7,118 nucleotides of DNA from a virus. The stretch is taken from the UHGV virus genome UHGV-0319381; one strand, given 5' to 3'. The notes beneath the pieces are model-generated. The model was not told the origin of the DNA. It searched no databases and was given only the letters and a program-made list of their open reading frames with translations. Below, piece by piece: positions 247-7,118 of this stretch; positions within the stretch are counted from its first letter, which is position 1, and each line of letters opens with the position of its first letter. The position numbers and the translations under genes are program-made.

Positions 247-371
247 TAAAGAGGGGGTAAAACGTGAGCAGAGCAATGAACAAACTGAGCGATACCTTGC
301 TAAGGAAACTTCATGGTAAGCCAGCGGAGAAAAACACGTTTTATAGTGATGGCGGAAACCTGAGCGTGAAA
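247..371. repeat. Right arm of the perfect inverted repeat (int RBS plus first 36 codons)
   Basis: Exact reverse complement of 1-125. Confidence 0.9.
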
Positions 372-1493
372 TATTTAACATCAGGGAAATTGACCTGGTA
401 TTTCACATACAGGGCCGGAACGGGAAGGGAGACACGACCCGAACGCATTAAGCTGGGAAGTTATCCTGATCTGAGCCTGAAAGCAGCCAGGGAAAAAGCC
501 GCACAGTGTCGCACATGGCTGGCTGAGGGGAAAAATCCACGTCATGAGATGAATTACACCGTACAGGAAGCGTTAAAGCCCGTAACGGTTGGCGATGCGC
601 TCACCTACTGGCTTGAGTCTTACGTAAAGGAAAACCGCGTGGATTATATCGCCCTGAAAAGGCGACTTAATAATCACGTAATACAGCAGATTGGTGCTAT
701 GCCGCTGGATAAATGCGAGCTACGGCACTGGCTGGCCTGTTTTGACCAGGTGGCAAAGCGAACGCCTGTTACTGCCGGATTCGTGCTACAGGCGTGCAAA
801 CAGGCGCTTAAGTTCTGCCGTAGGCGGCGCTATGCAATCAGCAACGTTCTGGACGATCTGAACGTGGCGGACGTTGGGAAAAAACCGGATATAAGCGAAC
901 GTGTCTTAAGTAACAAAGAACTTGGCGAATTATTGCAGGCACTGGACAAAAAAATATTTTCCCCTTACTACGTCGCGTTAATCCGCCTCCTGATTGTCTT
1001 CGGAGCCAGGACGGTAGAACTGAGGCTATCGGAGATCGGGGAGTGGGATTTTACGGAAATGCTATGGACCGTTCCGAAGGAGCACAGCAAAACGAAGGTC
1101 GCAATATTCCGGCCCATACCGGAAGCGATCCTGCCGTTCGTCACGCAGCTGGTGGAGCAGAACAGGCACACGGGCTTATTGCTGGGGGAAGTGAAACAGG
1201 AGGCCAGCGTATCGCAGTATGGAAGATTAGCGCACAGGAGGCTTAATCATCCTCACTGGTCACTGCATGACATCCGGCGCACCTTTACAACCATGCTGAA
1301 CGATTTAGGCGTTGATCCGCATGTCGTGGAGCAGCTTACAGGTCATCAGATGCCAGGAATGCAGCGAGTTTATAATCATTCCCGTTATCTGGATGCTAAA
1401 CGCAATGCGCTGGATATGTGGATGGAGCGGTTAGGGATACTGGCGGGAACACATGAAAACGTAACCACGCTACCAGTAGCCAGAAGAAAATAA
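264..1493 (+). CDS. int: Site-specific tyrosine integrase, P4-type (409 aa)
   Basis: GTG start with GAGGGGG RBS 6 nt upstream. The N-terminus (KLSDT...GGNLSVKYLTSGKLTWYFTYR) aligns by eye with the N-terminal arm-binding region of CP4-57 IntA-like integrases. C-terminal tyrosine-recombinase signatures are present: ARTVELR, HDIRRTF, and Tyr in VYNHSRYLD. Confidence 0.9.
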   Translation: MSRAMNKLSDTLLRKLHGKPAEKNTFYSDGGNLSVKYLTSGKLTWYFTYRAGTGRETRPERIKLGSYPDLSLKAAREKAAQCRTWLAEGKNPRHEMNYTVQEALKPVTVGDALTYWLESYVKENRVDYIALKRRLNNHVIQQIGAMPLDKCELRHWLACFDQVAKRTPVTAGFVLQACKQALKFCRRRRYAISNVLDDLNVADVGKKPDISERVLSNKELGELLQALDKKIFSPYYVALIRLLIVFGARTVELRLSEIGEWDFTEMLWTVPKEHSKTKVAIFRPIPEAILPFVTQLVEQNRHTGLLLGEVKQEASVSQYGRLAHRRLNHPHWSLHDIRRTFTTMLNDLGVDPHVVEQLTGHQMPGMQRVYNHSRYLDAKRNALDMWMERLGILAGTHENVTTLPVARRK

Positions 1494-1510
1494 TTTTTTT
1501 CGTGTTTTTT

Positions 1511-1526
1511 CAGTATGCGCATACTG
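1511..1526. repeat. Perfect 16-bp palindrome CAGTATGCGCATACTG just downstream of int
   Basis: Self-complementary 8+8 bp; preceded, not followed, by T-runs, so not a canonical intrinsic terminator on the + strand. Confidence 0.7.
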
Positions 1527-1532
1527 GATATG

Positions 1533-1586
1533 CGAACAGATACAACATGCAACAATGAGCAACAATGCGGAACAACTACGAACAAG
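1533..1586. repeat. Helically phased AACAA-type repeats (6 units at about 10-bp spacing), including GCAACAATG x2
   Basis: AACAGA, ACAACA, AACAAT, AACAAT, AACAAC, AACAAG recur about every 10 bp; GCAACAATG at 1549-1557 and 1559-1567. Confidence 0.6.
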
Positions 1587-1680
1587 AGACGAAAAAGTGT
1601 ACGGATTTATAAGTAGCTGATTTTTAATGTGTTACTGGTTTTTTATACACTAGCGAATCACTCTTTAAATAGCGAGAAAA

Positions 1681-1707
1681 AAGGCATGAAACAATATTTT
1701 ATGCCTT
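1681..1707 (-). terminator. Possible intrinsic terminator (7-bp stem AAGGCAT/ATGCCTT, 13-nt loop), better formed on the minus strand
   Basis: On the minus strand the hairpin is followed by TTTTTCT; on the plus strand it is followed by TGTATT only. Confidence 0.25.
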
Positions 1708-1867
1708 TGTATTAACATGAATTTAAATGATTTTATCCTGATTATTCCTGTTTCTGTAAACCATACGACCTCAACATTTGCCAACTCTGAATCATCCTGA
1801 CACAATCAGACACATCCCAACGCAATAGAACACGAAATAACTCTTTAAGAAACGAAAGGGGGCAATA

Positions 1868-2056
1868 GTGTTAAGCACTGATCGGTTTATACGTGAAAAA
1901 GAATGCGAAAAGCTAACAGGCCTTAGCCGCTCATGCCGCTACCGCCTGGAAAAGGCCGGACAATTCCCATCACGTCGTAAACTTGGCGGTCGTTCCGTTG
2001 GCTGGTCTTTATCCGAGGTTCTGGCCTGGAAGGATAGCTGCAAGGCAGTTCATTAA
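1868..2056 (+). CDS. alpA: AlpA-family transcriptional regulator / excisionase-like DNA-binding protein (62 aa)
   Basis: GTG start with GGGGG RBS 5 nt upstream. The sequence (LTGLSRSCRYRLEKAGQFPSRRKLGGRSVGWSLSEVLAWK) matches the AlpA pattern (TG..R...Y......FP....LG..SVGW...E...W) and sits directly downstream of int, as in P4-like and PICI elements. Confidence 0.85.
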   Translation: MLSTDRFIREKECEKLTGLSRSCRYRLEKAGQFPSRRKLGGRSVGWSLSEVLAWKDSCKAVH

Positions 2057-2202
2057 TCACGCTGGCGGCACACAGCCGCCACACATCAATCATCTGAACA
2101 CAGAGCTATAACCATGAAGATTGAATATACGCCAGAACGTGGGCGGGGATTCGTTCGCCCTGGTGAGACTGGAAAACCACAAAATTGGGGTTTTTCAGGC
2201 AT

Positions 2203-2230
2203 AAAAAAAGCGGCCCCGAAATGGAGCCGC
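2203..2230 (-). terminator. Probable intrinsic terminator for the minus-strand RHH/57-aa cassette (possibly bidirectional)
   Basis: Stem GCGGC (2210-2214) pairs with GCCGC (2226-2230); on the minus strand it is followed by a T7 run (complement of A-run 2203-2209). It lies about 95 bp past the minus-strand stop at 2326. Confidence 0.4.
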
Positions 2231-2325
2231 CTTTCTGAACAGATAACACGCTGCGCCGTTTGTGTGTGTGATCCCAAACATAAGCACGGGGATGATAGCC
2301 GCTATCAGGCTGGTGGGCAATGCAA

Positions 2326-2499
2326 TCAGTCTGGTTCAGTTCGTTGCCATACCTGCAATGAGCGCTTTTCCCTGTACTCTTTAAGGAATTGCTCAAGGGC
2401 AAAAGCACATGGCGCGAATCTTTCTGATTCATGCTCTATCTTTCTGCGCCGTCTTTTCCGTGCCGGTGATAATGTTTTGGTCAATTCTTTATCGGTCAT
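2326..2499 (-). CDS. Hypothetical small basic protein (57 aa, MTDKELTKTLSPARKRRRRKIEHESERF...)
   Basis: ATG at 2499 with AGGA 7 nt upstream; same strand as and 57 bp downstream of the RHH gene; followed by the terminator-like hairpin. An alternative start at 2514 gives 62 aa. No family recognised. Confidence 0.3.
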   Translation of the reverse strand: MTDKELTKTLSPARKRRRRKIEHESERFAPCAFALEQFLKEYREKRSLQVWQRTEPD

Positions 2500-2556
2500 T
2501 GTGTTGTCCTGCATAGCAATGCGCCGTAATACCTCACACCACGGCGCTGATAGTGA

Positions 2557-2862
2557 TTATTCTGATTCTTTGGCCTTGCGGCGCTGTAGTTCTTCACGAG
2601 CGATGGCGATAAGTTGCCCGAGTTCTTCCGTAGCTTTAATACCAATTTTTTCCACTTGCGCCAATGCATCGAGAGAAGAAATCAGAGGATTTTCACTGCT
2701 TCCTTCTGCCTGGCGGCGGGCGATCTCCCCGCGCATGGCGGTTACTATGAATCCGGCGTTGCTTTCGCCGTCCAGTTTTACGGATTCCATGCCATCAAAA
2801 GCATCATGTGGGATACGAATTGAAATCTGTTTTGATTTGTCGTTGATAGTGTTTTTTGCCAT
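2557..2862 (-). CDS. Arc/Mnt-like ribbon-helix-helix DNA-binding protein, candidate repressor (101 aa)
   Basis: ATG at 2862 with AGGAGA RBS 6 nt upstream (complement of 2869-2874). The N-terminus KQISIRIPHDAFDGMESVKLDGESNAGFIVTAMRGEI fits the RHH pattern of a beta-strand with R-x-P followed by two helices. It is divergent from the rightward operon, with operators between them. Confidence 0.55.
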   Translation of the reverse strand: MAKNTINDKSKQISIRIPHDAFDGMESVKLDGESNAGFIVTAMRGEIARRQAEGSSENPLISSLDALAQVEKIGIKATEELGQLIAIAREELQRRKAKESE

Positions 2863-2884
2863 GTGCATTCTCCTAAACAAAAGA

Positions 2885-2960
2885 TGTGATTCAGTATACA
2901 CAAAAAAGAATCACAAAAAACACTTGACCTGTGATTCAGTTGAATTTAATTTAAATCACA
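2885..2960. promoter_or_regulatory. Divergent promoter/operator region: two copies of a palindromic operator TGTGATTCAGT-N-(G/A)AATCACA flanking a TTGACC -35 box
   Basis: Operator 1: TGTGATTC 2885-2892 with GAATCACA 2908-2915. Operator 2: TGTGATTC 2930-2937 with AAATCACA 2953-2960. The two are 45 bp apart. TTGACC at 2924-2929, then 17 bp to TAATTT at 2947-2952, so operator 2 overlaps the putative rightward promoter. Confidence 0.45.
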
Positions 2961-3049
2961 CCTCAGTAAGAGGATGTAAACGACAACGCCCCGAACTGTT
3001 TGCGGCAGTAGCGGGGCGTCTAACCAAACCGTTAACAGGAGTAACGATT

Positions 3050-3247
3050 ATGGCTGGAACACAGCATACCCCACGTCTGGCGCACACACAAACTGCCTTT
3101 GTGTGGCGTTTTCTGGCACTAAGTGCCGGAGAATCTCAAATCATCCACGTAACCGCCTGGACGGAACGCGAAGCGCGTAGCCGTTGCCCGTCCGGTTGTG
3201 TTGCTGTATTCGCCGCCCGTATTCGTCAGGGGTCACATCATGCGTAA
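3050..3247 (+). CDS. Small protein paralog A (65 aa) with FVWRF...TEREAR...ARIRQG..HA motifs; possibly the Icd-like/Ash-like small-protein family of P4-like elements (name uncertain)
   Basis: ATG at 3050 with ACAGGAG RBS and 8-nt spacer. Paralogous to 3534-3704. It is the only part of the long 2114-3247 ORF that looks coding. Confidence 0.55.
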   Translation: MAGTQHTPRLAHTQTAFVWRFLALSAGESQIIHVTAWTEREARSRCPSGCVAVFAARIRQGSHHA

Positions 3248-3533
3248 AAACCGCTTGCAAAAAATTATCACGGGGCTGTATGCTTCCCCCGTCGCCCACA
3301 TGGCGACCGGGTTTGACAGCCTGAATACTACAGCGGACAGCCGCTTACATTCCGATATGCGGTTTTTTTGTGTCCGTAAACCTACCCATACCCGCATTAT
3401 GGCGGGGCGTAACGGGGGAGCCTTTGCGCTCGCTGGTTCCTGTAGTGCCAGTCTGTCAACCCTGTTACGTCTCGCCACCATGTTTGACAGCGTAGTAGCG
3501 AGACTCCTTAATTTCACTACAGGAGCCTTTCAC

Positions 3534-3704
3534 ATGGCTGTATTCGCACGCCCTTATTTTGTCTGGCGCTTTATGCAGTGCCTGACAGACAGCATTGCAA
3601 TATTCACCGTTACCGCTGCCACTGAGCGCGAAGCACGTGCACAGCTGCCGCACGCACATCTGATTTTTGTCGCCCGTATTCGTCAGGGGGTGTGCCATGC
3701 CTGA
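3534..3704 (+). CDS. Small protein paralog B (56 aa) with the same FVWRF...TEREAR...FVARIRQG..HA motifs
   Basis: ATG at 3534 with identical ACAGGAG RBS and 8-nt spacer; shares a 19-bp identical stretch (GCCCGTATTCGTCAGGGG) with paralog A. A possible TTGACA-N17-CTTAAT promoter lies at 3484-3512. An alternative in-frame start at 3240 (154 aa) is not excluded. Confidence 0.55.
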   Translation: MAVFARPYFVWRFMQCLTDSIAIFTVTAATEREARAQLPHAHLIFVARIRQGVCHA

Positions 3705-4017
3705 TATGTCAAATTACCAGTACCTGATTAATCCGCATTTTAACTGTGAGCATGATATTGCTAAAAAAGTTTATTCCGCTGCGGATGGGGCTACTGACAA
3801 TATATCAATGGCTGTTGCGTCAATTGGTAGCCTGATGTGGCATGCGTCAGAAAATGAGGACTATGACGAAAAGGCCATGCGCATTGATATGGGTAATATT
3901 GGTTTGTTACTGGCAATGCTTGGACATTTTGATATTTCGTTACGGTGCACCATTGGAAATGCCACAGATGCATTAAATGCTATAAAGAAAGCGAATACTG
4001 ATTCAAATCGGGGATAA
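3697..4017 (+). CDS. Hypothetical protein (106 aa)
   Basis: ATG at 3697 with GGGGG RBS 6 nt upstream; start overlaps the stop of paralog B (ATGCCTGA). No family recognised. Confidence 0.5.
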   Translation: MPDMSNYQYLINPHFNCEHDIAKKVYSAADGATDNISMAVASIGSLMWHASENEDYDEKAMRIDMGNIGLLLAMLGHFDISLRCTIGNATDALNAIKKANTDSNRG

Positions 4018-4023
4018 ATAATC

Positions 4024-4323
4024 ATGAGAGCGTATTTATCTGGCTTTACTGCCAGCGGTTATGCACACCCCAAAATTATCCCCGGCGCTATTTATCTGGA
4101 TAAGAACGGTAACAGAGTAACGGTAAAAGAACTGATGTTTGACCGTGTGTATTTTATTCGTGATGGCTATTCATTTCATAGTTCGCTGAACGTGGAGATC
4201 TTTATTAGCAGATTCCGGCGGGAAATCCCGCTTTCCAGAAATAACCATGTGTCATGTATGGATGTTGATAAAAAACTACAGGAACTGAAAAACATGATTG
4301 CCGCGTGGAGAGAGCAGAAATGA
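4024..4323 (+). CDS. Hypothetical protein (99 aa) immediately upstream of, and translationally coupled to, the alpha-like gene
   Basis: ATG at 4024 with GGGGA RBS about 9 nt upstream; its TGA stop overlaps the ATG of the next gene (ATGA at 4320-4323). Confidence 0.5.
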   Translation: MRAYLSGFTASGYAHPKIIPGAIYLDKNGNRVTVKELMFDRVYFIRDGYSFHSSLNVEIFISRFRREIPLSRNNHVSCMDVDKKLQELKNMIAAWREQK

Positions 4324-6137
4324 AAAAAGCGCCAAATTTAAAACACCAGCCGCGTGACAAAATGACGGAAGTCATCATTTTTGCGGGTAGTGATGCGTGG
4401 GCACATGCGAAGCAGTGGCAGGAACAGGACGGGCGACTGGCTGGCGATAACGTGCCACCTGTCTGGCTTGGAGAGCAACAACTTGCCGAACTGGACAACC
4501 TGCAAATCGTACCGGACGGACGCTATCGCGTGCGTCTCTACCAGGCGGGGTTATTGCGTCCGGGGCTTGTTAATACCATCGGGCAGAAACTGGCAGCGGC
4601 AGGTGTCAGGGATGCTGATTATTACCCTGAAGGAATGCACAGCCAGAAACGGGAGAACTGGCGCGAATATCTGGAACGTGAGCGGGGAGAGCTGGCGGAA
4701 AAGAAAAAGGTAGTTGAACTGCCTGTAAAGAAAAAAGAGCGGGTAAAAGACGATAACGCTTCATCACTGGCGCTTAACCAGATGGGAGCAAGTCAACGCG
4801 GCGAAGTTCTCCTGGCACATTATGGCGGTGAACTGGCGATTCATGCTGACTCTGACACTGTTCACTATTACAACGGCGTTGTATGGGAGCCAGTACAGGA
4901 TAAAGAATTACAGCGAGCTATGGCGCAGATTTTCATTGATGCGGAGATCAGCTATTCGCAGAACGCCATTAAATCGGCGGTCGATACCATGAAGTTAAGT
5001 TTGCCTGTAATGGGGAATACAGCCCGTAACCTGATTGGATTCAGTAACGGTGTTTTTGATACCCGGACAGGCGATTTTCGGGAGCATAACAAAAACGACT
5101 GGTTGTTAATTGCCAGTGAATTACCTTTCAGCCCACCAGCAGAGGGGGAAACGCTGGCAACACATGCGCCGAATTTCTGGAAGTGGTTACGCCGTTCGGT
5201 GGCTGAGAATGACCGCAAGGCGGATCGCGTACTGGCTGCATTATTCATGGTGCTGGCGAACCGGTACGACTGGCAGTTATTCATTGAGGTAACAGGTCCA
5301 GGGGGAAGTGGTAAAAGCGTGATGGCGGAGATTTGCACCATGCTGGCGGGTAAGGCCAACACGGTATCGGCAAGCATGAAGGCGCTGGAAGATGCCAGGG
5401 AACGCGCGTTAGTGGTTGGCTTTTCGCTGATTATCATGCCGGATATGACCCGTTACGCTGGTGATGGCGCAGGAATTAAGGCCATTACAGGCGGTGACAA
5501 GGTGGCAATCGACCCGAAGCATAAAGCCCCCTACTCAACACGCATTCAGGCGGTAGTGTTGGCGGTGAACAATAACGCCATGTCATTCAGTGACCGCAGC
5601 GGGGGGATTTCACGTCGTCGGGTGATATTCAATTTTTCGGAGGTTGTACCGGAAAACGAACGCGACCCCATGCTGGCAGAAAAAATAGAAGGAGAGCTGG
5701 CGGTTGTGATTCGCCACCTGCTTACTCGTTTTTCTGACCAGGACGCAGCTAAACGCCTGCTGTATGAGCAGCAGAAATCAGAAGAAGCTCTGGTGATAAA
5801 ACGCGAGGGCGATTCGCTGGTGGACTTCTGCGGCTATCTCATGTCGTCGGTAATGTGTGATGGTCTGTTAGTGGGTAATGCCGAAATTATTCCGTTCAGT
5901 CCGCGCAGGTATCTTTATCACGCCTATCTGGCATATATGAGGGCACACGGATTCGGTAAACCTGTAACACTGACGCGCTTCGGTAAAGATATGCCGGGGG
6001 CAATGGCGGAATATGGCAGGGAGTATATGAAACGGAAAACGAAGCACGGTTTGCGTTCAAACGTGACACTGACGGAGGAATCAGAAGACTGGATGCCATC
6101 ATGTGTATCGGTCACTAATGACGACAGCAAAAATTAA
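4320..6137 (+). CDS. P4 alpha-like replication protein: SF3-type helicase / phage-plasmid primase P4-family C-terminal region (605 aa)
   Basis: ATG at 4320 with GGAG RBS; an alternative GTG at 4305 gives 610 aa. Walker A VTGPGGSGKS at about residues 325-333 and Walker B-like hydrophobic-D (LIIMPD). A long C-terminal region is followed immediately by TGTTCACC iterons. The N-terminal roughly 300 aa carry no primase signature I can recognise by eye. Confidence 0.8.
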   Translation: MKKAPNLKHQPRDKMTEVIIFAGSDAWAHAKQWQEQDGRLAGDNVPPVWLGEQQLAELDNLQIVPDGRYRVRLYQAGLLRPGLVNTIGQKLAAAGVRDADYYPEGMHSQKRENWREYLERERGELAEKKKVVELPVKKKERVKDDNASSLALNQMGASQRGEVLLAHYGGELAIHADSDTVHYYNGVVWEPVQDKELQRAMAQIFIDAEISYSQNAIKSAVDTMKLSLPVMGNTARNLIGFSNGVFDTRTGDFREHNKNDWLLIASELPFSPPAEGETLATHAPNFWKWLRRSVAENDRKADRVLAALFMVLANRYDWQLFIEVTGPGGSGKSVMAEICTMLAGKANTVSASMKALEDARERALVVGFSLIIMPDMTRYAGDGAGIKAITGGDKVAIDPKHKAPYSTRIQAVVLAVNNNAMSFSDRSGGISRRRVIFNFSEVVPENERDPMLAEKIEGELAVVIRHLLTRFSDQDAAKRLLYEQQKSEEALVIKREGDSLVDFCGYLMSSVMCDGLLVGNAEIIPFSPRRYLYHAYLAYMRAHGFGKPVTLTRFGKDMPGAMAEYGREYMKRKTKHGLRSNVTLTEESEDWMPSCVSVTNDDSKN

Positions 6138-6151
6138 ACTTATGGAATAAC

Positions 6152-6378
6152 TGTTCACCACTGTTCACCCTGTTATAAATATCTTTTATATCAGTATATT
6201 ATATGGTGAACAGTTATTTGTGAACTGTTCACCAAACTATTCACTGTTCACCTTTTTGATTATTTATTGAGCTTTAAGGGTGAACAGTGGTGAACAGTTG
6301 GTGAATAGTTTTTGTGAAACTGTTCACCCCTTAACATTATGAATAAAAAGGGAAAATCTCAAAAGGTGAACAGGTGAA
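6152..6378. repeat. Iteron array, putative origin of replication (crr/ori-like): about 11 copies of TGTTCACC in both orientations around an AT-rich core
   Basis: Forward TGTTCACC at 6152, 6162, 6226, 6245, 6321. Reverse GGTGAACA at 6205, 6279, 6289, 6365, with degenerate copies at 6300 and 6373. Several copies sit at 10-11 bp phasing. AT-rich stretch at 6171-6204. Confidence 0.75.
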
Positions 6379-6424
6379 GGGTTAAAATGCAAAAATTTTA
6401 TTTTATTGCTGTGAGGTAAAGCCT

Positions 6425-6670
6425 GTGACAACGAAGCACGCAAAAAAACCACAATCTCACGCCCTTGATTTGACAGAACACTGGCTGAGGGTGGCGATAA
6501 AAATCATCGACCGCAACGCGGGAGAAGGGTACGCAAAAGCACATCCCGAACTGATAAGCGCATTCATGACCACGGCGGCAGCAAACTTTGCCACGCTGAC
6601 AGAACGGGAGATTGCCGAAGCGGAACAGGTGACAACCATCAACGTTAAAACCGGAGAGCAGACAGCATGA
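6425..6670 (+). CDS. Hypothetical protein (81 aa)
   Basis: GTG at 6425 with GAGG RBS 8 nt upstream; stop overlaps the start of the following SSB-like ORF (ATGA at 6667-6670). No family recognised. Confidence 0.4.
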   Translation: MTTKHAKKPQSHALDLTEHWLRVAIKIIDRNAGEGYAKAHPELISAFMTTAAANFATLTEREIAEAEQVTTINVKTGEQTA

Positions 6671-7118
6671 CAGCACAGATAGCGGCTTACGGGCGGCTGG
6701 TGGCTGACCCGCAGTTAAAGACCACCAGCAAAGGGACACAAATGGCGATGGCGAGTATGGCGGTTCCCCTGCCGTGCAGCCAGGCAGATGACGGAACGGC
6801 GACGATGTGGTTATCTGTCCTGGCGTTTGGCAGACAGGCCGACGCACTGGCAAAACACCACAAAGGCGAACTGGTGAGCGTGGCGGGTAACATGCAGGTG
6901 AGCCAGTGGACAGGCCAGAACGGGGAAACGCGGCAGGGCTGGCAGGTTATTGCAGACAGCGTAATCAGTTGCTTAAAACGGTATGTTATCCCCGTACGGA
7001 TCAACATTTCCCGCCTGTTGTTTTGCCCTGTTCAGCGCGTCAGTAGCCTGGCCCTGTTGAGCTTTTTTGCCGCCCGGTCGCGCCGTTCGCGCACTGATTA
7101 CGCTGTCTGCAATAACCT
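6667..7118 (+). CDS. SSB-like OB-fold single-stranded DNA-binding protein, 3'-partial (runs off the window)
   Basis: ATG at 6667 with GGAG RBS. IAAYGRLVADPQLKTTSKGTQMAMASMAV...WLSVLAFGRQADALAKHHKGELVSVAGNMQVSQWTGQNGETRQGWQVIADSV aligns by eye with the bacterial SSB OB-fold pattern (VGRLG.DPE.R.T..G...A.F..A...W....A.G..AE.A..YL.KGS.V...G.L....W.D..G..R....V.A). No stop before the window end; the region after the OB fold is atypical (hydrophobic/basic rather than Gly-rich acidic tail). Confidence 0.55.
   Translation, partial: MTAQIAAYGRLVADPQLKTTSKGTQMAMASMAVPLPCSQADDGTATMWLSVLAFGRQADALAKHHKGELVSVAGNMQVSQWTGQNGETRQGWQVIADSVISCLKRYVIPVRINISRLLFCPVQRVSSLALLSFFAARSRRSRTDYAVCNN

Follow-up and report, generated by a model that had tools for sequence, protein, structure and literature searches.

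A DUF4222/RgdR-family gene and a narrow-family helical-hairpin gene between a C4 RNA leader and a P4 alpha-like replicase in a phage satellite

Layout and reality of the two genes

The 7,118-nucleotide (nt) stretch of the virus genome UHGV-0319381 analysed here (the window) carries two small open reading frames (ORFs), ORF1 and ORF2, directly 5' of a replicase gene related to alpha of the satellite P4. An original prediction, made from the sequence alone, had proposed that these two ORFs of 106 and 99 aa occupy the position of the P4 helper-derepression genes and had named both as candidate helper-interaction factors. The coordinates of the two ORFs are confirmed by our analysis, and the surrounding part of the window is arranged as follows:

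3050..3247, plus strand: first Icd-like ORF, 65 aa, matching NF033153 (phage_ICD_like) at E 2e-17 and 86% identical to Sakai ECs_1577
3278..3327, plus strand: c4-a1b1, target element of C4 RNA (RF03163), 46.8 bits against a gathering score of 46.7 and hence just at threshold
3291-3369, plus strand: sub-threshold isrK-like match (RF01394, 35 bits against 50), overlapping c4-a1b1
3395..3482, plus strand: C4 or P4-CI-type antisense immunity RNA (RF01695), matched over its full length with 72.3 bits (gathering score 45), E 4e-13
3534..3704, plus strand: second Icd-like leader ORF, 56 aa from ATG 3534 with AGGAG 8 nt 5' of it (alternative ATG at 3480), matching NF033153 at E 3e-13
3697..4017, plus strand: ORF1, from ATG 3697 to TAA 4017, 106 aa, isoelectric point (pI) 4.9
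4024..4323, plus strand: ORF2, from ATG 4024 to TGA 4323, 99 aa, pI 9.7
4320..6137, plus strand: replicase, 605 aa, composed of an N-terminal domain (RepN), a P4-alpha-like superfamily 3 (SF3) helicase and a C-terminal DNA-binding part, with D5_N, DUF5906 and Pox_D5 matches
4320-4757, plus strand: RepN domain, replicase residues 1-146 (~125-146 aa)
6146..6375, no strand assigned: probable origin of replication, an AT-rich intergenic region (GC 0.38) 3' of the replicase

ORF1 and ORF2 are real genes that are inherited together and are under purifying selection. Both are intact in each of the 59 distinct 627-bp ORF1-ORF2 alleles that were collected from E. coli and IMG/VR loci, and across these alleles the ratio of nonsynonymous to synonymous polymorphism (pN/pS) amounts to 0.32 for ORF1 and 0.35 for ORF2 in frame, as compared to 0.6-2.1 in the other two same-strand frames. 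Of 5426 complete E. coli genomes, 474 carry ORF1 (513 places) and 473 carry ORF2 (509 places), which is ~9% of the genomes. In other words, the two genes practically always occur together; SMS-3-5 and O26:H11 11368 are among the carrier strains. The RefSeq annotation of an E. coli locus that is 97.9% identical and lies between cspD and clpS contains the identical three genes with identical overlaps.

The genes are tightly packed. The ATG of ORF1 and the stop codon of the upstream Icd-like ORF share an 8-nt overlap (ATGCCTGA, 3697-3704), a gap of 6 nt separates the ORF1 stop from the ORF2 start, and the ORF2 stop overlaps the replicase ATG as ATGA (4320-4323). A purine-rich run resembling a Shine-Dalgarno (SD) sequence lies 6-9 nt 5' of each of the three starts (AGGGGG 6 nt before ORF1, GGGGA 9 nt before ORF2 and GGAGAG 7 nt before the replicase). 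The geometry of these overlaps suggests that the Icd-like ORF, ORF1, ORF2 and the replicase are translationally coupled, and the gene order presents ORF1 and ORF2 as the second and third cistrons of a predicted satellite early operon that begins with the Icd-like ORF and ends with the replicase.

Two longer ORFs in the leader, 2114-3247 (377 aa) and 3198-3704 (168 aa), are probably not genes and were rejected, as they cross the RNA elements and are Icd-like only in their C-terminal 56-65 aa. In RefSeq, a related locus carries a 154-aa 'Icd-like' coding sequence annotated across the C4 RNA.

ORF2, a divergent DUF4222 protein beside the replicase

ORF2 is a small, basic protein of the DUF4222/RgdR family. 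It matches the Pfam profile DUF4222 (PF13973) with 61.1 bits against a cut-off of 27 (E 7e-17) over profile positions 1-52 of 53, matches phrog_285 at E 2e-21, and is 30% identical to RgdR (ECs1581) across residues 1-99 of both proteins (E 4e-12). RgdR (99 aa, pI 10.1) is the single studied member of DUF4222 and is encoded on the O157:H7 island Sp7, also named CP-933C or OI-51 (PMC10877973). It activates LEE1, part of the enterocyte effacement locus (LEE), independently of Ler, together with type III secretion, represses motility, and binds DNA in electrophoretic mobility shift assays without sequence specificity; these activities require residue 20 of its RGD motif as well as K35, and they are established for RgdR and C1493 only (PMC3378721).

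In ORF2, the RGD at residues 20-22 is replaced by P20-G21-A22, and K35 is kept. At these three positions, RGD occurs in 55 of 98 aligned homologues and PGA in 6. The replacement lowers the likelihood that ORF2 is an RgdR orthologue with type III secretion activity and leaves its membership in DUF4222 unaffected. ORF2 and RgdR have in common the length of 99 aa, the basic character, K35 and the barrel core described below, and ECs_1581, like ORF2, lies directly 5' of a replication gene, a primase gene that it overlaps by 4 nt. They differ in that the window island belongs to a different allele group with a different upstream neighbour from Sakai Sp7 (the capsid-forming phage-inducible chromosomal island (cf-PICI) EcCIEDL933), and many strains that carry the ORF2 island have no LEE. 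ORF2 is a new, divergent and RGD-less member of a known family, one that was already reported to be universal in the phage-inducible chromosomal islands (PICIs) of E. coli.

The position of ORF2 relative to the replicase recurs in other islands. A DUF4222 gene is located directly 5' of the replicase gene in all four island types examined, namely the window, L127, Sakai Sp7 and the Enterobacter island L124, and the junction AAATGAAA with its ATGA overlap is conserved in all of them. The replicases behind this junction carry helicases of three classes: SF3/D5_N in the window and L127, DUF927 in Sakai and AAA_25 in L124. They share RepN, characterised by the motif MK.APN.K...TE.IIFAGSDAWAHA..., which is 48-71% identical among the D5_N, DUF927 and AAA_25 replicases, the remaining parts being unrelated. 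RepN, for which no Pfam match was found, stands in place of the primase domain of P4 alpha; the window replicase lacks that primase domain and is 48% identical to P4 alpha residues 290-771, which comprise the helicase and the C-terminal DNA-binding part. The overlap of DUF4222 with the replicase gene in four of four island types, across three replicase classes with one shared N-terminal domain, points to a native role of the family in satellite replication or in the early programme of the satellite.

The two types of E. coli replicase that follow ORF2, of 605 aa and 707 aa, are 94-97% identical at residues 1-146 and divergent thereafter, and the upstream similarity to other islands ends recurrently at ~3661-3671. 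Because breakpoints recur at these two places, around 3661-3671 and after replicase residue ~146, ORF1, ORF2 and RepN behave like a single recombination block. As a side observation, the C-terminal tail of the L124 DUF4222 protein (6001-6324), SLPLSVGSDGWDKGLK, is 49% identical to the linker (aa 111-149) of the replicase of the same island (6321-7730), and a motif similar to this tail and linker, LPLSRGSEGF, occurs in the L115 replicase. This likeness may reflect a shared docking motif or a local duplication.

On the 3' side of the replicase, the P4 type-1 iteron TGTTCACC occurs in nine exact copies in both orientations at 6152-6372. The whole window contains 10 matches to this 8-mer, as compared to 0.28 expected, and nine of the 10 lie within 6146-6375, which is the probable origin of replication. 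The 8-mer is identical to the type-1 repeats of P4 ori and crr.

In P4, the gene immediately 5' of alpha is not epsilon. The original prediction had stated that the genes just upstream of alpha include epsilon, but the direct neighbour of alpha is cnr (orf106, DUF5375). Cnr reportedly acts through binding alpha. ORF2 and cnr both lie directly 5' of an alpha-like replicase using the same iterons, and because it is cnr, and not epsilon, that is found immediately 5' of alpha, the positional counterpart of ORF2 is a replication regulator, cnr being the P4 copy-number gene (PMC8628076). The analogy does not extend to sequence, as ORF2 shows no similarity to Cnr, and the spacing differs as well, with cnr ending 14 nt from alpha and ORF2 overlapping the replicase start. 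For ORF2, the idea of helper derepression is therefore replaced by membership in the RgdR family and the analogy to the cnr slot.

The predicted structure of ORF2 comprises a Tudor/SH3-like barrel (residues 23-66) followed by a C-terminal helix (residues 78-98). A sequence search of the PDB with ORF2 returned noise only, and no match was obtained against the PADLOC models. As an alternative, ORF2 could be a factor resembling CarD or the UvrD Tudor domain, in which the barrel docks on RNA polymerase and the basic C-terminal helix touches DNA, so that ORF2 would reprogram transcription of the island and the host and have no role in replication. The Ler-independent activation of LEE1 by RgdR, its repression of motility and its non-specific DNA binding (PMC3378721) agree with such an activity. 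However, many unrelated barrels, among them eukaryotic Tudor domains, FeoA and VapX, give scores that are just as good, at sequence identities of 11-15%, and the overlap of DUF4222 with the replicase gene in four of four island types, across three classes of replicase, would be left unexplained. We consider this reading of ORF2 rather unlikely.

ORF1 and the slot behind the Icd-like ORF

The original statement that neither protein matches a family was not borne out for ORF2, which belongs to PF13973. Sequence searches of Pfam, NCBIfam, PADLOC and the PDB with ORF1 gave no match, and the only family recovered is phrog_15327, matched over its full length at E 2e-70. A word-indexed search found relatives in E. 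coli only, all at >=65% identity. An exhaustive HMMER search against 1.84 billion representatives returned 15 hits, three of which are credible remote relatives of 100-105 aa with 28-41% identity. Three large proteins, P0058 (with TPR_12 repeats), P0059 and P0063, were rejected as repeat-inflated, each containing 4-12 repeated weak stretches. With tblastn, neither ORF1 nor ORF2 matched any of 50,697 phage genomes, and scans of viral contigs with P0060 and P0064 found nothing. All three remote relatives are located in integrase-AlpA islands, one to three genes 5' of a DUF927 or AAA_25 replicase, and in two of the three islands (L115 and L119) capsid genes follow. Hence, the ORF1 family is restricted to satellites and has kept its position near the replicase.

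The AlphaFold2 model of ORF1 is a helical hairpin (predicted local distance difference test score (pLDDT) 81.6) with helices at residues 19-51 and 58-105. The residues invariant in the family (L10, G44, L46, M47, A50, Y56, G69 and N88) are mostly found around the turn between the two long helices. Foldseek comparison of the model with the PDB and BFVD recovered generic helical hairpins only, for example EsxB, UvrY, ROP and occludin, with best E values of 0.8-1.6, and was not informative. The homology and structure searches put forward with the original prediction thus led to DUF4222 and a barrel model for ORF2 and to generic hairpins (Foldseek E > 0.8) for ORF1. As modelled, ORF1 is an acidic helical hairpin of a very small family found in satellites only. 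It is also the fastest-evolving member of the block formed by ORF1, ORF2 and the replicase: in L109, a more distant relative, ORF1 is 65% and ORF2 88% identical, and the replicase, whose translation was compared by inspection, appears still more conserved.

The likeness to P4 goes deeper than had been predicted. The same two RNA families are found upstream of epsilon in P4, with the C4 family at 8507-8420, and the C4 RNA, its a1b1 target and the Icd-like ORF are arranged in the window as in P4. A Pfam scan of the P4 left operon identifies orf88 as AlpA, the 137-aa 'cI' ORF as Phage_ASH, epsilon as PF25738 ('Derepression', 170 bits) and orf106 (cnr) as DUF5375 (PF17345, 211 bits); orf151 has no Pfam match. 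The gene order is therefore AlpA, RNA, Ash/Icd ORF, epsilon, orf151, cnr and alpha in P4, and AlpA, RNA, Icd-like ORF, ORF1, ORF2 and replicase in the window. When this junction is aligned for P4, the window and three further islands, homology extends over the end of the Ash/Icd ORF, the SD sequence and the start codon. The genes that come next differ: P4 has epsilon, the window and L115 have a member of the ORF1 family, and L123 and L127 have other small ORFs. Since the junction aligns with that of P4 and the downstream gene differs, the slot of ORF1 is exactly that of epsilon. In a Pfam scan, small ORFs from the matching slots of the sibling islands gave no epsilon, Cnr or DUF4222 match, and those of L123 and L127 matched no Pfam family. 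The slot 3' of the Icd-like ORF is a cassette swap point.

At Rfam gathering scores, C4 RNA is also found in P4, L123 and L127, and none was detected in Sakai Sp7 (L003), L115, L119 or L124, two of which (L003 and L115) do carry Icd-like ORFs. The RNA gate may be lost or divergent in part of the islands, among them Sakai Sp7, the source of the RgdR data.

Leaders of this type control anti-repressors elsewhere. In P1, C4 RNA controls ant, and expression of icd is required (PMC8201110); anrP, an anti-repressor-like gene of Gifsy-1, relies for its translation on orf45, which lies upstream of it and behind isrK (PMC4825925). The window resembles the c4-icd-ant order of P1/P7 immI and the isrK-orf45-anrP order of Gifsy-1 in its C4-family RNA, target element and Icd-like leader, but the genes that follow are ORF1, a DUF4222 gene and the replicase, with no protein of the Ant or AnrP type; a Pfam scan of ORF1 and ORF2 yielded no Ant, Bro-N, KilA or AntA domain.

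ORF1 could accordingly be viewed as a non-homologous analogue of P4 epsilon and P1 Ant, that is, as a small anti-repressor that would act on the repressor of a resident helper prophage, or on another repressor, and derepress the helper once the C4/Icd gate opens. The slot holds an anti-repressor in three characterised systems (P4 epsilon, P1 ant and Gifsy-1 anrP), the window and P4 share the 8-nt start/stop overlap at a homologous junction, ORF1 comes close to epsilon in size (106 vs 95 aa) and is an acidic, all-helical protein with a hairpin whose tip is conserved, and its rapid evolution is as expected of a partner-specific binder. On the other hand, no sequence or profile similarity connects the two proteins: ORF1 and ORF2 match neither PF25738 nor PF17345 in a Pfam scan at E <= 1, BLAST against epsilon, Cnr and orf151 is negative, and hhalign of the ORF1 family against epsilon and Cnr gives probabilities <0.1%. 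Moreover, ORF1 has no fold match in BFVD or the PDB, its remote homologues are set off from the leader by one more gene, and the islands that hold them already have Bro-N or AntA genes, and the related islands are lambda-type PICIs, which are described as helper-induced and not helper-inducing. The support is purely positional, and what survives of the helper-derepression idea, for ORF1 only, is a positional hypothesis that we regard as improbable. It is less probable still that ORF1 founds a new anti-repressor family through which a lambda-type PICI would actively derepress its helper prophage, as P4 does to P2 via the unrelated epsilon; this would differ from the current description of PICIs as passive responders to helper induction. 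Were this true, the slot 3' of the Icd-like ORF would be a general swap site for helper-specific derepression cassettes.

The location at a swap point, with unrelated small ORFs in sibling islands, and the very narrow family would suit accessory cargo, with ORF1 serving in anti-defence, host takeover or interference with competitors and playing no part in helper control or replication. This is the alternative that we find hardest to credit. ORF1 has no match in PADLOC, which is weak evidence against cargo as PADLOC holds defence and not anti-defence proteins; the distant homologues keep their position just 5' of the replicase despite differing replicases and capsid modules, which argues for a role in the core life cycle of the satellite.

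The opposite charges of the two proteins (pI 4.9 vs 9.7) and their practically 1:1 co-occurrence raise the question of whether ORF1 and ORF2 are a cognate pair, in which ORF1 would titrate the DNA-binding ORF2 in the manner of an anti-regulator and its regulator or an antitoxin and its toxin. In front of the DUF4222 genes of other subfamilies lies a small acidic ORF that is different in each case (ECs_1580 with pI 5.05, and ORFs of 77 aa in L127 and 59 aa in L124 judged acidic from their sequences), and in L115 and L119 the gene behind the ORF1 homologue encodes a different small basic protein of pI 9.6-9.7. The co-occurrence may, however, reflect linkage only, and in L123 it is an acidic ORF that comes after the ORF1 homologue. 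Neither PADLOC nor Pfam returned a toxin or antitoxin match, and the toxin-antitoxin version is kept as a weak rival only. For RgdR produced on its own from a plasmid, the reported phenotypes were all regulatory, toxicity going unmentioned. The pairing is in our estimation doubtful. The basic proteins in question (L115:8306-8674 and L119:8300-8638; 112-122 aa) are 57% identical to each other, lie 3' of the ORF1 homologue and have no Pfam match. That of L115, an island without RepN, holds the pre-replicase place that DUF4222 has in Enterobacter L124.

The island and the possible working of its early operon

The closest full-length relative of the window, L075, is 98.5% identical across window positions 549-6661 and continues after the replicase with genes for PerC, for capsid and decoration proteins resembling lambda E and D, respectively, and for a Nu1-like small terminase (terS); L001 is similar to L075 with ssb added. 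The core set of P4-like satellites comprises int, psu, delta, sid, alpA and epsilon as well as alpha (PMC8628076), and sid, psu and delta are not present in the window. Because its relatives carry E-, D- and Nu1-like genes and lack sid, psu and delta, the island is assigned to the lambda-type Gram-negative PICIs and not to the P4-like satellites. By sequence comparison, this lambda-type PICI has a half, for regulation and replication, that is homologous to the P4 left operon. The features typical of Gram-negative PICIs are found: int, alpA and pri-rep have one orientation, and ori adjoins rep. The island further resembles the lambda-dependent EcCICFT073-type PICIs in the order int, alpA, small ORFs, rgdR-like gene, pri-rep and ori, and its close relatives in the continuation with ssb, perC, lambda E/D-like capsid genes and Nu1-like terS. 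It differs from them in that the window ends in ssb, so that any packaging module of its own would lie outside, and in having no known helper phage. Gram-negative PICIs respond to a helper that induces alpA, AlpA being the master activator that drives the island cycle (PMC11773190), so that a need to derepress the helper is not established.

Taken together, we favour an explanation in which the gene architecture described above is combined with gating by C4 RNA and the Icd-like ORF, a function of ORF2 as replication or early regulator and a function of ORF1 as protein-binder. We assign this explanation as a whole a probability of roughly 0.5; gene identities and operon architecture by themselves appear highly probable, and the activities proposed for ORF1 and ORF2 are tentative. 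The C4 antisense RNA would gate the early operon, such that expression of ORF1 and ORF2 would require translation of the Icd-like leader and be shut off by C4 RNA, in analogy to P1 ant and the P4 epsilon-alpha operon. ORF2 would be produced in fixed proportion with the replicase and could, as a DNA-binding accessory factor or regulator, act in replication initiation or early transcription, in the functional place of P4 Cnr, with RepN as its most likely contact. On this view, what RgdR alleles do to the virulence and motility genes of the host would be a side activity, which the window allele, without R20 and D22, may not have. ORF1 might bind another protein via its conserved hairpin tip, candidate targets being a helper or host regulator, ORF2 or the replicase.

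Several points weigh against this explanation. The sole functional data on DUF4222, those on RgdR, concern host transcription and do not tie the family to replication, and ORF2, at 30% identity, lacks two of the three RGD residues. The pairing of DUF4222 with RepN is not obligatory, since L119 and L123 have RepN replicases but other small ORFs where DUF4222 would be, and L115, an island without RepN, has a different small basic ORF in that place. A partner for ORF1 is unsupported, the fold searches having yielded generic helical hairpins (E > 0.8), and both the control by C4 RNA and the translational coupling are deduced from sequence alone.

DUF4222/RgdR has so far been known only as a regulator of virulence genes in enterohaemorrhagic E. 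coli, and if its native role lies in satellite replication or the early programme, the virulence effect of RgdR could be reinterpreted as a by-product. The early operon of these PICIs is built like the immunity operons of P4 and P1, with a C4 RNA, an Icd-like leader and a putatively coupled effector slot. ORF1 represents a narrow and so far uncharacterised family at a locus of a known kind, and together with the unrelated small ORFs in the slots of sibling islands it provides a short list of candidates for manipulation of helper or host. The C4/Icd gating of a PICI operon, the cassette swap point and the linkage of DUF4222 to RepN are possibly useful points, none of which overturns current understanding.

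The remaining features of the window are:

264..1493, plus strand: tyrosine integrase (Arm-DNA-bind_3 E 1e-18, Phage_integrase E 3e-16)
1868..2056, plus strand: AlpA-family regulator (PF05930, E 5e-18)
2557..2901, minus strand: YlcI/YnfO-family small protein (NF041551 E 4e-18 over residues 21-62; phrog_6522), the true start of which may be internal
6425..6670, plus strand: small conserved ORF, 81 aa (phrog_1231)
6667..7118, plus strand: gene for single-stranded DNA-binding protein (SSB; PF00436, E 5e-16), running to the window end

Positions 1-125 and 247-371 form an exact inverted repeat (125 nt, 100%) with arms 121 nt apart; this repeat at 1-371, which overlaps the start of the integrase, looks like a foldback artefact at a contig end. 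Rfam microRNA matches were rejected as RNA genes, as they reflect the inverted repeat and the AT-rich iteron region. On the minus strand, the YlcI/YnfO-family gene alone is clearly conserved; it lies between alpA and the Icd-like ORFs, and its product could be a regulator of the early operon.

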